NCBI GenBank assembly: GCA_964016885.1
Contig: OZ024765.1
Span: 930,001-994,000 of the forward strand
DNA length: 64,000 nucleotides
Source of the DNA: Eledone cirrhosa
Lineage: Eukaryota
Direction of reading: 5' to 3'
Positions within the stretch are counted from its first letter, which is position 1, and each line of letters starts with the position of its first letter. The notes under the pieces are model-generated. The model saw only the letters and a program-made list of their open reading frames with translations. It did no database searches and was not told the origin of the DNA. A program made the position numbers and the translations under genes. Of this stretch, positions 4,411 through 59,208 are shown in pieces.

Positions 4411-4461
4411 AGTTTAAGCAAAGAATCGCTGCTTTCACCCTTAACGGGATCTTCTGAAACT
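4411..4461 (-). ncRNA. Type I hammerhead-like motif with variant core CAGAAGA
   Basis: agttt-CAGAAGA-tccc gttaa gggt-GAAA-gca(gcgattctt)tgc-TT-aaact, with stems I, II and III pairing. Inverted partner at 4522-4572. Confidence 0.55.
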
Positions 4462-5198
4462 AAAAGAATCAATCTGTGAACGCAGAAGTAGATCGATTTT
4501 TTTTTTTTTTTTTTTTCTTTTAGTTTCAGAAAATCCTGTTAAGGGTGAAAGCAGCGATTCTTTGCTTAAACTTTAATCTGTTATTTTAATATATATATAT
4601 ATATATATATATATATATATATTCATACTATATATACATACTATATATGCAGTGTTTATATAGAATGTATATATACTATATATTCATACTATATATACAC
4701 TGTGTATATATACAGTATGTATATATATTATATATACACTGTATATATATAGTATGTATATATACTATATATTTATAATATATATACACAGTGTATATAT
4801 ATAGTATATATATATATATATATATACATATACATACTATATATAAACAGAAATCCAACAAGCTTTTGATTCCCGAGTTGGGCCAGATCAATACATATCG
4901 AATCTTGAGCTGTGGTCCACCACACCTCAATAAATGTAATGAAACCCTCTGCTTTCATCATCCTCGTCACCTCTGCTTCTTTCCACCTTGTGGCCACTGC
5001 CTTCTTCCACCTCGTGGGCTCTGCCCTTTCCTATCAGCCAACTTCTCAAGGTCCCCAGCACTAGAATGAAGAACTACAGTGACCAGCTTTAAGGCCTTCT
5101 TTAAGTCAGCTTTCTAGGGGTGACCATGGTTAGGACTTCTTTAAGTCAGCTAATGGCCTTGAGCCTATAGTAGAAATCATTATTATTGTTATTATTAT

Positions 5199-5392
5199 GG
5201 TGGTGGTGGATTGGCAGGACATGTAGAGCATCGGACACCTTGCTTCGTGGCATATAATTACGGTCCTTTAAGTTCTGAATTCAAATCCCACAGAAGTTAA
5301 CTTCGCCTTTCATCCTTACAGGGTTTCAATAAAATAAAGTACCAGTAATACACTGGGGTAATTGCTGGCCTTGTGCCTAAATCAGAAACCAT
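5199..5392 (+). mobile_element. tRNA-derived SINE family A (MetaSINE-like), diverged copy
   Basis: B-box-like gaattcaaatcc, then gcctttcatcct...aaagtaccag core, the shared tail and a (tat)n run. Confidence 0.8.
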
Positions 5393-8300
5393 CATTATTT
5401 TTATTATTATTATTATTATTATTATTATGGGCAAGGCCCTTTTCTCTGACTAAAAACTAAAAACAATGAAAATAAGACAAAACAAAAAAAACACCTCCTC
5501 CTACTTCTACCCTCCCCCACCTCCTCCCCACCTCCTCCTCCCCCACCTCCTCTCCTCCCTCTCTTTCCTGCTTCCTGTTTAAAATGTGTTGCTCTTGAGT
5601 CAGACTAAACCTTCGTTGTCACCAGAGCTTAACACATTGTTGGTGTTGTGGTTGTTAGTGGTGGTGTGGTGGTGGTGGTGGTGGTGTGGTTGGTGTGGTG
5701 GTGTGGTTGGTGTGGTGGTGGTGTGGTGGTGGTGGTGGTGGTGTGGTTGGTGTGGTGGTGTGGTTGGTGTGGTGGTGTGGTGGTGGTGGTGGTGTGGTGG
5801 TGATGTGGTGGTGGTGGTGGTGGTGGTGTGGTTGGTGGTGTGGTTGTTAGTGGTGGTGGTGTGGTGGTGGTATGGTTGTCAGTGGTGGTGGTGTGGTGGT
5901 GGTGTGGTTGGTGTGGTGGAGGTAGTGGGTGGGTGGTTGGTGTGGTGGTGTCACTAGACCTTAACATGTTGGTGGTGTTGTTAGTGGTGGTGTGGTGGTG
6001 GTGGTGGTGGTAGTGTCCATGTTGTCACTAGATCTTAACACATTGTTGTTGTGGTGGTGGTGGTCACCAGTGTTAGTGAAGGTATGGTGCTGGTGTTAGT
6101 GTTGTTGTTATCTTAACAACCAACTGTGGTGATGTTGTTGTTGTTGTTGTGGGTGTGGTGGTGGTGGTGTATATGCAAGCGTGGAAAAAAACATGTAAAA
6201 ACAACAATGATGATGATGATGATATAGAAATAATATTTACAGGTCTAGAACTGTTTCATTCATAAGAAATCATGAGGAATATCTTGATGAACTCAGTCGA
6301 ATGAAATAGTTCTAGTCCTGTATAAGTCATTCCTATAATAAAATAAATATACCTTTTTTTAACTGCCAGGAATCCACCTATATATGTACATACATATATA
6401 CATACATACATATATACATGCATATATATATATATACATATATACATGCATATATATATGTACATGCATATATATATATATACATACATATATACATGCA
6501 TATATATATATGTACATGCATGTATATATACATGCATATATATATATATATATATACATGCATGCATATATATATATATATACATGCATATATATACACA
6601 TGCATGCATATATATATGCATGCATATATATATATATATACATGCATATATATACACATGCATGCATATATATATACATGCATATATATATATATACATG
6701 CATGGATATATATATACATGCATATATATATGTACATGCATGCATATATATATATGTATATACTTACACATACACACACATATATATATATATATATATA
6801 TATATATATATATATACATATATATACATATATATATAACAAAGGAAGTGTGTTACAGAACCAGGTGGACCATAACGCACCAGAATACTCGATACTTTGG
6901 GTAGTAGAGTGGGTAATAGGAAAAGAGTCAGGACCCCGTGTGGGCTGGGGGCTTTTTTGCCGTGACACCTCCGCGACCACTTTGCAGTGGGAGGGGGTCG
7001 GGGCAAGGCAAATAGATTATTAGTTTTGCACTTGATATAGTAGGAAATGGGTCTTAAGATTTTGGGTGTTAGTTCTTCAGAAAATAGAATGAGAAGTTAA
7101 GGAAGAAATAGATTCATTTAGAAAACAGGCAGTGATGGGAACAAAAAGGGACATTTTTTAGGGAAAAGAAACAAGAGGTCCATTCATATCGACATCTCTA
7201 GGAAAACTGTTAATGCTAGCATTTTGTGTAAGATAATCTTGTTTAAAAAGGCAGTGATCAAGCTTGTCTATCTGAAAAGACAAAAAAAATACTTTTTATA
7301 TATATATACCTGTATATATATATATATATGTATATATATATGTATGTGTATATATATATATGTATATATATATATATATATATATATATATATATATATA
7401 TATATATATATACACACACACACACAGACACACACACACACACACACACACACACACACACGCACACACACACACAGGGTGTCCCCAAATATGTGTATAC
7501 ACACTTTCATTACCTGATCAGGCAGAATTTATTAGAATGCTGTTAAATTGTGTATACATATTTTAGTTTACATCTGGAGAGAGAGAGAGTGTGTGGGTAT
7601 GAGACTATATATAGAGAGAGTGAGAGAGATAGAGAGAGAGAGTGTGTGGGTATGAGGCTATATATAGAGAGAGTGAGAAAGAGTGTGATATATATATATA
7701 TGTATGTGTGTGTGTGTATATATATGTAGATATATATATATAGAGAGAAATACAGAGAGAGAGTGTAAGAGAGTGTGTGTGTATGTGAGGCAAAGATATA
7801 TATATATATATACTGTAAATGAGGTTGGTGTTAGGAAGGGCATCCAGCTGTAGAAACCAAGCCAGCATCAGTTCCCGTCCCACCCTCGCAAGCAGGGAAA
7901 AGCGGACGTAAAATGAAATGATGATGATGATGATATATATATTATATATATTATATATATATATATAGGTAGATATATATATATATAATATATAGGTAGA
8001 TATATATAATATATATATATATATATATCTAATATATATATATATATATATATGTAGATATATATATAATATATATATATATATATAGATATATATCTAC
8101 CTATATATATATATGTAGATATATATATAATATATATATATAGATATATATCTACCTATATATATATATATGTAGATATATAATATATATAATATATATA
8201 GAGAGAGAGATAGTGGTAGTAGATAGTATGTGAATATAACAAACAATCTCAGCTATACTACCACCACCACTACTACCACCACCATCAACACTGTCGCCAA

Positions 8301-9139
8301 TACTATCACTATACCACCACAACCACTGGCGCCAACAATACCACTATTCCTCCCCACCACCACCGCCACCACTGGCCCCACCACCACCACCACCACCGCC
8401 ACCACTGGCCCCACCACCACCGCCACCACTGGCCCCATCCTCAATATCAACAACAGTGACCTATGCTCTGTATTTGTTGTTCAACCTTTGTACTGTCCTT
8501 ATTGTATTGAGTACTTTGGTGGGGAGCTTGGAACACAATAGTGGTGGTGGTGTTGTGATAGTGTTGGTGGTGATAGCGGTATTTATATATATATATATAT
8601 ATATATAAATATATATATATATCTCTCTCTCTCTATATATATATATCTACATATATATATATAGGTAGATATATATCTATATATATATATTATATATATA
8701 TATATCTACATATATATATATATATATAGGTAGATATATATAGGTAGATATATATATATATATATATATATATATATTATATATATATCTACCTATATAT
8801 TATATATATATATATCTACCTATATATATATAGGTAGATATATATATATAATATATATAATATCATCATCATCATCATTTCATTTTACGTCCGCTTTTCC
8901 CTGATTGCGAGGGTGGGACGGGAACTGATGCTGGGTTGGTTTCTACAGCTGGATGCCCTTCCTAACACCAACTTCATTTACAGTATATATATATATATCT
9001 TTGTCTCACATACACACACACTCTCTCACTCTCTCTTTGTATTTCTCTCTCTATATATATATCTACATATATATATCTACATATATATATCTACATATAT
9101 ATATCTACATATATATATCTACATATATATATCTACATA

Positions 9140-58142: not shown

Positions 58143-58187
58143 AGTCATAGTCCTTTCGTCACACACTCTGTGACCTCTTCAGTGACT
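58143..58187 (-). ncRNA. Minimal type I hammerhead
   Basis: agtca-CTGAAGA-g-gtcaca gagtg tgtgac-GAAA-g ga c-TA-tgact. Confidence 0.8.
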
Positions 58188-58351
58188 GGGGATTCCTTTC
58201 TTTGTTTCTGTGCCTTTCCTTTCTTCTGTCCTACGCCATTTTGTTTCTGTGTGTGTGTTGTGTGCTCAGTTTGCACACAACACACACACAGAAACAAAAT
58301 GGCGTAGGACAGAACAAAGGAGAGGCACAGAAACAAAGAAAGGAATCCCCA

Positions 58352-58394
58352 GTCACTGAAGAGGTCACAGAGTGTGTGACGAAAGAACTATGAC
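58352..58394 (+). ncRNA. Minimal type I hammerhead (mirror copy)
   Basis: gtca-CTGAAGA-g-gtcaca gagtg tgtgac-GAAA-g aa c-TA-tgac. Confidence 0.78.
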
Positions 58395-58610
58395 AATATA
58401 TAAACAACTATCTGGTTGTAGAACCAACCAACCAACCAGAAATTTATAAATTTATTATAAATTTATTATAATAAATTGAAGTGAAAGCAACTGGTGCGTG
58501 TGTTTCTTATTGGCAACATGACCCTCCCAAAGTATAACAATATATATATATATATATATATATATATATGCACAAATATATATAAATATATATATATATA
58601 TATATATATA

Positions 58611-59208
58611 CTATTTTTATCATATGTAACCCATGTGCAACCACACAGTATTCTTCTTTCTTCTCATGTTTTTTATATATATTTACCTCAGCTGCGTTTG
58701 TCTGTTTCTCTCTTACTGCTTCCCCGCTCTCTCTGTTTCTCTCACCTTCTTTCGCCCCTCTGTCAGTTACACTTTCTCTCGACTGACCTCTTCCTCGCGC
58801 TTCCACTCACTCACTCTCTGTTTCTCCCCTTCTCACTTCCTCCCGTTTGGCTTGTAGTGGGTTCTCTTCTTGCTCACATCTCACTCACGTCGGACGGTCT
58901 GTATCTCGATCGCTCATGAAATCCACCCAGCTTATGCTGACCGGATAACCATGTTGCTTGTTTATTCCTATCTTTGCGTTGCTTTCATCCTTCTATGTTG
59001 TTTACTTGTCTCACTCGCTTTACGCGATTTACTTGTGTCCCAATAGCTTTATTTAGCTATTGCTCGCACCAACTGGAGGTATATGATTTTTAATGCGATG
59101 AAATACCAATGAAGGTTGGAAAATCACTGACGAAGGACTATTTTTATCATATGTAACCCATGTGCAACCACGCAGTATTCTTCTTTCTTCTCATGTTTTT
59201 TATATATA
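58611..59208 (+). mobile_element. Partial-tandem non-coding element: 527-bp monomer with a terminal direct repeat of about 70 bp
   Basis: ctatttttatcatatgtaacccatgtgcaaccac...ctcatgtttttta occurs at 58611 and 59138. Relatives lie at 35222-35360 (+) and 54190-54350 (-). Confidence 0.75.

Follow-up and report, generated by a model that had tools for sequence, protein, structure and literature searches.

We analysed a 64,000-nt stretch of the genome of Eledone cirrhosa (contig OZ024765.1, positions 930,001 to 994,000 of the forward strand), referred to here as the window, in which the limits given for the listed parts are approximate. The window is rich in microsatellites and is a pile-up of the ends of Penelope-like elements (PLEs) inserted into TA tracts, and the hammerhead motifs found in it are real. 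The original prediction, made from the letters of this stretch, had described about ten families of 'unique-looking' islands with type I hammerheads and proposed them as a candidate retrozyme system. DNA searches of the genome, in which the best 40 candidates per family were scored out of 66-3277 first-look candidates, showed instead that all ten families are dispersed genomic repeats. Their copies have a fixed 3' end, ragged 5' ends, frequently an inverted piece and a location in TA runs, which is the insertion pattern already described for PLEs (PMC8557442). All families except one, F9, are ordinary, and the eight with coding parents represent known biology. F9 is the one clearly non-autonomous family, and its hammerhead is differently ordered, which the original prediction missed. 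We consider it probable that the pile-up consists of eight truncated coding families together with F9, whose permuted hammerhead is likely self-cleaving and likely descended from Naiad-type PLEs.

F9 is represented in the window by three copies:

58610..59200, + strand: F9a, the tail of an upstream unit (58610-58685) and one full non-coding unit of about 526 bp (58686-59200), forming a partial tandem between TA runs
35216..35357, + strand: F9b, a 5'-truncated copy of the unit of about 532 bp from a young subfamily, with a permuted hammerhead (P at 35223, predicted cut after 35243, G12 at 35260, C3 at 35287)
54204..54403, - strand: F9a, a 5'-truncated copy with a permuted hammerhead at 54343-54268 (predicted cut after 54323, C3 at 54279)

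The F9 units are non-coding and carry one candidate ribozyme each, with lengths of 526 bp in F9a, 532 bp in F9b and about 620-630 bp in F9c. Among 25 loci found via the unit start, the start continued to the unit end, about 510 nt further on, in 24 (one of them with an insertion), and a partial upstream unit was present in 20. F9b is a young subfamily, with 26 of the 39 other best matches identical over at least 133 nt. F9c gave 1,862 exact pattern matches versus 0 in the control, and occurs as inverted pairs and in a long array at C1:132.61 Mb, where at least 19 head-to-tail units of about 630 bp (G000:C1:132609176-132621808) form a satellite-like expansion. A PLE frame was not reached in any F9 copy examined.

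A frame ending in a zinc knuckle lies 5' of one F9 copy (L153/L191); it was met once and was taken as an insertion site. This frame resembles the first open reading frame (ORF1) of a long interspersed nuclear element (LINE) and ends in its zinc-knuckle-like stretch at the start of an F9 trimer, and fragments of such a frame lie at 17962-18300 (+) in the window and at L191:2264-3192 (-). Rfam gave only weak matches on the F9b unit, including models of box C/D small nucleolar RNAs across the kink-turn region described below. A weak Rfam match to U6 antisense to the F9b 3' end (L319:1466-1568 and 1994-2099, +; 20.3 bits, E 0.018, gathering threshold 44) is probably due to chance.

The three F9 places had been listed in the original prediction, at 35229, 54287 and 59069, as variant or decayed type I hammerheads, with CUGAGGU presumably taken as the core. 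That string is variable in the family, whereas a second one about 50 nt further 3', CUGA[C/U]GA (C3 at 35287+, 54279- and 59127+), is kept in 105 of 120 F9 copies, and the family is better read as a permuted hammerhead. In the F9a copy with the full unit the predicted parts, all on the + strand, are as follows:

59063..59138: the permuted hammerhead
59064-68: P, the 5' strand of stem II
59069-74: X
59075-77: kink-turn strand
59078-82: stem III'
59083: N17, with the predicted cut after it
59084-89: stem I'
59094-99: stem II'
59100-02: GAA
59103-07: stem III
59108-13: kink-turn strand
59114-19: X'
59121-26: stem I
59127-33: CUGACGA
59134: position 10.1

Read 5' to 3', the F9 motif runs through P, X, three bases, stem III', U16.1 with N17, stem I', a 4-nt linker, stem II', GAA, stem III, six bases, X', one base and stem I to CUGANGA. 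Every hammerhead core base is present, ordered from the cleavage site through GAAA to CUGANGA, and as predicted from sequence this order is a non-circular, pseudoknotted permutation of the hammerhead.

The evidence for this fold comes from two alignments. The first contained 37 copies, hand-selected among 99 distinct ones so as to span the subfamilies and leaving out truncated and most decayed copies, and the second 29 more diverse copies (the three from the window, 18 of the 26 matches of the blind test described below, and eight divergent ones). Covariation, which had been put forward with the original prediction as a check on the families, was found for F9 in the permuted fold, where all four helices were paired and double changes occurred in each. 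In the first alignment X was 97% paired (five of six pairs doubly changed), stem I 96% (5/6) and stem III 98% (1/5), while stem II, formed with P, reached 79% overall and 97-100% in its inner four pairs, with one double change. The second alignment gave 95% for X (5/6 doubly changed), 97% for stem I (5/6), 96% for stem III (2/5), and for the P helix 80%, again with 97-100% in the inner four pairs, and two double changes. None of 500 shuffles of the first alignment attained its paired share or its covariation score, and strands slid against each other paired at 27-46%.

Other ways of folding the family were discarded. Read as a decayed type I motif, F9 paired at 60% in stem II and 73% in stem III, with no double changes; types II and III and the twister were rejected by inspection. 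A stem II built from the bases after CUGANGA paired at 33% and 37% and was rejected beyond its first pair. That first pair is the exception: in 23 of the 29 copies of the second alignment, the base immediately 5' of GAAA is paired with the one that follows A9 (U-G 9, U-A 7, A-U 6, C-G 1). With the 10.1 pair supplied by the base after A9 and the rest of the helix by P, the F9 chain would be broken between 10.1 and 10.2.

The core was also retained in the second alignment. The bases from G12 to A15.1, together with C3, U4, G5, A6, G8 and A9, were invariant, these positions being part of the search pattern; U16.1, kept in 28 of 29 copies, and N17, which was A or C and never G, were in no search pattern. 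A kink-turn consists of a 3-nt bulge followed by tandem G.A and A.G pairs, placed between two helices, and the internal loop between stem III and X in F9 fits this consensus at the level of sequence.

A descriptor of the permuted order found exactly the three copies in the window, where shuffles averaged 0.003, and in 1.54 Mb of loci enriched for F9 it matched 138 places, versus 0 in one shuffle. Across the genome a pattern of the 3' half (GAAAT, GA and CUGANGA at fixed spacing) had 23,557 matches, versus 43 for the reversed control. In a blind test on the first 26 consecutive matches of this pattern, 19 had at least 19 of the 22 predicted pairs upstream, while shifted controls had at most 16 of 22. 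Of the seven that missed, one had a shifted register, one was decayed and the others were truncated or inverted. N17 was A or C in the 19 passing copies, and the upstream GA strand of the kink-turn, which had not been selected for, was present in 16 of these 19 intact matches. The complementary pattern gave 2,120 matches versus 304 in the control and revealed further families, among them family D (L380, L383, L395 and L396), with all four helices and G10.1-C11.1 supplied from P but no kink-turn sequence, and family E, which is decayed.

The F9 RNA is a predicted ribozyme that likely cleaves itself. The kink-turn would bend X round to connect the distal ends of stems I and II, and each unit would be cut at one place, which in F9a lies about 110 nt short of the unit end. 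By analogy with PLE biology the ribozyme could trim tandem or read-through transcripts to unit length and possibly yield circles, and a PLE protein with reverse transcriptase (RT) and GIY-YIG domains would then copy the unit-length RNAs into TA tracts, leaving inserts of more than one unit. Since the searches of this genome turned up no Naiad coding sequence, we favour a recently active Hydra- or Neptune-type element over an unseen Naiad as the present helper; the Hydra- and Neptune-type elements here have stop-free frames and identical copies.

Naiads have been described as lacking a canonical hammerhead, HHR_core being flagged in 10 and HHR_half_core in 8 (Craig et al. 2021, PMC8557442), and the Naiads of cephalopods as long inactivated (PMC8557442). 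Of the 54 Naiad consensus records, 30 were read by eye over their final 300-500 nt, with the names deduced from the order of the records. The F9 layout, with P first, was seen in ten of the 30 3' ends (Bfor, 3_Chem, 2_Movir, Amil, Aacu, Anas, Plae, Obim, Ovul and Esco), which include near-identical sets of three corals and two octopuses; stem I has 2 bp in Bfor, and stem II is weak in Esco. The CSG order, with an intact block C and helix X, was seen in four others (3_Nbra, Hcon, Hpol and Smim). Like F9, the Obim and Ovul ends contain the kink-turn sequence and keep the 14-nt spacing, and a stretch of about 12 nt immediately before P is shared as well; this likeness is consistent with the cephalopod label in the original prediction. 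A metagenome scan with a motif like that of the coral Naiads found at least 120 loci, mostly decayed, in which the first stem I pair shows a compensatory change, and two of the eight matches to a Naiad-type end in the Eledone genome look like decayed relics.

These likenesses suggest that F9 likely descends from Naiad-type elements and that the permuted form likely explains why Naiads were thought to be free of hammerheads. We lean, with some reserve, towards the wider view that Naiads in at least six animal phyla use non-circularly permuted hammerheads, one form of which has its opening within the CUGANGA block and a kink-turn to bend it, that this genome has roughly 25,000 copies in still-mobile non-coding tandem elements which outlasted their Naiad parent, and that these ribozymes are the first of their kind in eukaryotic genomes. 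In the record preceding Naiad-2_Movir there is a string near the 3' end which we take to be twister-like, and another structured-looking 3' motif is common to two Clytia records and one oyster record in File S5 (PMC8557442). Naiads may exchange one ribozyme class for another.

The remaining families of the window have the canonical order of CUGANGA, GAAA and UH with stems I-III (F1-F7, F10 and F11, the window copy of F11 being decayed), and their copies are:

14640..14823, + strand: F1, 3' end of a Hydra-type PLE with a short inverted piece (about 14640-14691); type I hammerhead, C3 14735, N17 14780
23107..23250, - strand: F2, 3' end of a Hydra-type PLE; type I hammerhead, C3 23188, N17 23150
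26700..26875, + strand: F2, second copy; core CCGAUGA (U4C, the usual state of the family), C3 26788, N17 26826
27284..27600, - strand: F3, 3' end of a Hydra-type PLE with an inverted piece; C3 27451, N17 27407
53273..53544, - strand: F3, decayed copy; C3 changed to U at 53463
35394..35667, - strand: F4, 3' end of a Hydra-type PLE with an inverted tail; C3 35494, N17 35440
37291..37555, + strand: F4, 3' end and tail; C3 37368, N17 37422
56498..56632, - strand: F5, extreme 3' end of a Hydra-type PLE; C3 56626, N17 56588, U.U at the base of stem II
near 33564, 38945, 41256-41385 and 55278-55495: F5, further decayed or cut copies
57977..58543, both strands: F6, inverted pair of 3' ends of a Neptune-type PLE; C3 58182 (-) and 58356 (+)
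9145..9470, - strand: F7, short non-coding unit of a Neptune-type PLE, its unit start (9445-9336) joined to the 3' end (9335-9170); minimal hammerhead, C3 9265, stem I of 2 bp
4364..4588, both strands: F10, inverted pair of 3' ends of a Hydra-type PLE; core CAGAAGA (U4A), C3 4456 (-), the 4527 (+) copy decayed
49592..49711, + strand: F11, PLE-like 3' end with an inverted piece; minimal type I hammerhead, C3 49649, G12 lost

A hammerhead-like motif was found by scanning or inspection at every place that the original prediction had listed, subject to the corrections given here, and the expectation that such motifs exceed a dinucleotide-shuffled control was borne out. A strict type I scan gave four matches in the window (C3 at 14735+, 37368+, 35494- and 27451-), versus means of 0.035 in global and 0.075 in 200-nt local dinucleotide shuffles (200 each). 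A relaxed descriptor, set after the sequences had been seen to allow one extra base after A9 or a mismatch at the base of stem II, with U4 free, gave ten matches, adding 26788+, 58356+, 58182-, 56626-, 23188- and 4456- to the strict set, versus a mean of 0.04 and a maximum of 2 in 300 local shuffles. The motif called an intact core at 9235(-) has its core and stem II intact (C3 9265-) but a stem I of just 2 bp, and fails both scans. One core base is broken in each of 53463-, 49649+ and 4527+, and site 3147, where a core is present and stems are absent, was dropped. Among the 150 of 797 Rfam matches listed for the window there was no hammerhead, the matches being instead to microRNAs and driven by microsatellites. 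A genome search with RF00163 had 18 matches among the best 74 scored, all from a family outside the window of the type at loci L001-L010, a further type I hammerhead family that lies as inverted pairs in TA tracts.

In eight of the nine type I families longer genomic copies extend 5' on the same strand into RT and/or GIY-YIG coding sequence. A full-length relative of F4 (locus L186) has an 818-codon stop-free frame with RT and GIY-YIG, flanked by two partial end repeats and containing the motifs RLRW, DKT, YRDD, CxCX5C and a C-terminal YFGST. With RWK-like and DKT motifs, a CxCX5C linker, no CCHH and TA targets taken as the marks of the Hydra clade, F4 belongs there by motif, and F1, F2, F3, F5 and F10 were placed with it by eye from similar frames. 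Their coding parents lie at L171 and L172 (F1), L175 and L177 (F2), L295, L298, L300, L303 and L308 (F3), L240, L241 and L243 (F5, across a 2-kb microsatellite-like 3' region) and L281, L283, L284 and L289 (F10). The frames of F6 (L180-L183, L190) and F7 (L028, L178, L194) have a CxxC-type linker and GIY-YIG and appear Neptune-like by motif. Pfam recognised two of seven PLE proteins, weakly and below the cut-off; protein neighbours in the Atlas were found at 0.96-0.98, some in clusters with GIY-YIG/HTH_animal or RVT_1, and a protein search with the F7 endonuclease returned six proteins. For F11 no open reading frame was reached within about 250 nt upstream in 35 loci.

In the short non-coding units of F7 the unit start is fused to the last 166 nt, as in the window copy and nine other loci; the tandem spacing is 318-340 bp, and locus L179 has 1073-bp units. 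The F10 core is CAGAAGA (U4A) in 24 distinct copies and CTGAAGA in none, and the F2 core is CCGATGA (U4C) in 22 of 24, so that both are family-wide core variants in coding PLEs. The region between the stop codon and the hammerhead of F5 (L240:6500-8560, about 2 kb) is a TA/TG microsatellite-like tract common to copies, and part of the microsatellite of the window may therefore be PLE-borne.

The window also contains minisatellite arrays at 14929-15494 (period 47 bp), 21450-22169 (72 bp), 28598-29785 (78 bp) and 39051-41014 (72 bp), and a near-perfect inverted repeat about a TA centre at 11123-11241, made of two head-to-head copies of another short repeat. C-terminal RT fragments of a LINE, which we take to be RTE-like, lie at 60175-60651 (+), 50358-50640 (-) and 52295-53033.

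Several observations weigh against the reading of F9 as a self-cleaving, Naiad-derived ribozyme. A measure counting further pair types did not rise above the shuffles (67 of 500 in the first alignment and 216 of 500 in the second); the copies share kinship, so that cell counts overstate the independent events; and the first alignment was hand-picked, while the second left out 8 of the 26 blind matches. Stem II is the weakest helix, with four solid pairs, and supply of the pair next to G12 is split, the base before GAAA pairing with the first base of P in 11 of the 29 copies. On the Naiad side, the folds were read by eye from text excerpts and not computed, and neither permuted order was seen in 16 of the 30 excerpts. 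In the Eledone genome two degenerate motifs for Naiad coding sequence had 0 matches, all 30 loci inspected out of 150 GIY-YIG matches had the domain C-terminal rather than N-terminal, and the Naiad-type end motif was at chance level (8 versus 11 in the control). In the metagenome scan 14 of 102 loci passed the descriptor, none with an upstream open reading frame.

That the fold is real but non-catalytic, a hammerhead-derived 3' structure kept for binding by the PLE protein, we regard as unlikely: a short, nicked stem II would suit it, most minimal PLE hammerheads cleave poorly in vitro (PMC4209133) and eight of nine Xenopus dimers failed to cleave (bioRxiv 10.64898/2026.07.22.740005), but U16.1 and a non-G N17 are retained although all helices change, N7 varies as in active hammerheads, and type-SGC and CSG RNAs, which have related layouts, do cleave in vitro (PMC10085705). 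Less probable still is a domain swap, in which the strands pair in canonical order between neighbouring units or molecules with no pseudoknot within the unit. F9 is often a partial tandem and PLE hammerheads have been proposed to act as dimers (PMC4209133); against this, X and stem III are nested around the kink-turn sequence in cis, all four helices fit in 76 nt, P would still be required for stem II, and the nematode and spider Naiads show, by eye, the same ring of helices opened elsewhere.

The first view of the window, about ten independent non-coding retrozyme families with type I hammerheads, is by now highly improbable and largely refuted. All ten families are indeed repeats in TA tracts, F9 and the short F7 units are non-autonomous, non-coding tandems as that view supposed, and no parent was found for F11 within about 250 nt; eight families, however, continue into RT/GIY-YIG frames, and the type I fold fails for F9. 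The original prediction had itself linked the motifs to PLEs and TA tracts and named extremely truncated ends as the alternative. Both points held: the copies sit in TA runs, and for eight of the ten families the 5'-truncated copies proved to be the 3' ends of coding PLEs, the outcome that the prediction had itself set as counting against independent retrozymes, whereas no such alignment was found for F9 or F11. A fourth account differs from ours in the helper alone, having F9 moved by a still-active Naiad that escaped detection. It is possible though doubtful: F9b is very young, the layout, the 14-nt spacing and the 12 or so nucleotides 5' of P recur by eye in the Octopus Naiad ends, and exact-match motif searches miss diverged proteins, yet the searches of the genome with motifs, GIY-YIG loci and Naiad ends all found none, and the published description has cephalopod Naiads inactive for long (PMC8557442).

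Much of what lies in the window is known biology, and the new element is the hammerhead form of F9. A permuted, self-cleaving and Naiad-derived F9 would overturn the claim that Naiads lack hammerheads and undercut the argument that the ribozyme is dispensable for, or parasitic on, PLEs (both PMC8557442). It would also shift non-circularly permuted hammerheads from environmental contigs to high-copy repeats of animal genomes, and would bring in an opening point that is assumed away in the six-permutation scheme (PMC10085705). The kink-turn could moreover answer a puzzle raised in that work, namely how the far end of stem III meets the helix joining stems I and II without a spacer.

Among known systems, the minimal and type I hammerheads in the pseudo-long terminal repeats of PLEs of the Hydra and Neptune clades (Cervera and de la Pena 2014, PMC4209133; PMC8557442) are matched by F1-F7 and F10 in their mostly solo truncated ends, the form of most PLE hammerheads (PMC4209133), and in the extra base after A9, the short or palindromic stem III and the inverted pairs; what is added here is new family members and the family-wide U4A of F10 and U4C of F2. 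File S2 of PMC8557442 already has Hydra-1_oBim with a hammerhead, and 31 recently active PLE families have been reported in O. vulgaris in a paper whose main text leaves ribozymes unmentioned (PMC13282606). Animal non-LTR retrozymes (Cervera and de la Pena 2020, PMC7229834; bioRxiv 10.64898/2026.07.22.740005), which derive from PLE ends (Li et al. 2026, the latter preprint), resemble F9 and the short F7 units as non-coding tandems with one ribozyme each and an origin in PLE ends, but they have type I hammerheads in units of about 300 bp, whereas F9 has the permuted form in units of 526-630 bp. Naiads (PMC8557442) are like F9 in their TA targets, partial tandems, inverted pieces and, in 14 of the 30 ends read, a rearranged 3' motif; they differ in being reported to lack a canonical hammerhead, and F9 for its part has no ORF.

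A close counterpart is the type-SGC hammerhead, named for the order of its blocks S, G and C, which has a short linker between stems I and II and a helix joining these stems (Eckert et al. 2023, PMC10085705). Together with the CSG type it was described there from one bacterium and from contigs of metatranscriptomes or metagenomes. The term was met in one open full-text paper, PMC13725137 citing that work in passing; neither Octopus nor Mollusca appears in the text of PMC10085705 or in one supplement to it, and the open full-text literature, subscription journals aside, held no report of permuted hammerheads in PLEs or animal genomes. F9 agrees with type SGC in its block order, pseudoknotted core, short linker between stems I and II and the helix that connects the distal ends of these stems, and its stems I and III covary. 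It differs in having a kink-turn sequence that links stem III to the joining helix, and in its host, a retroelement of an animal genome rather than environmental contigs or a bacterium. Moreover, block C of type SGC keeps its own strand of stem II, whereas F9 is opened inside that block, which the six-permutation scheme takes as uninterruptible (PMC10085705), so that the strands of stem II and the joining helix come first. In its predicted fold F9 is the type-SGC ring of helices opened inside block C.

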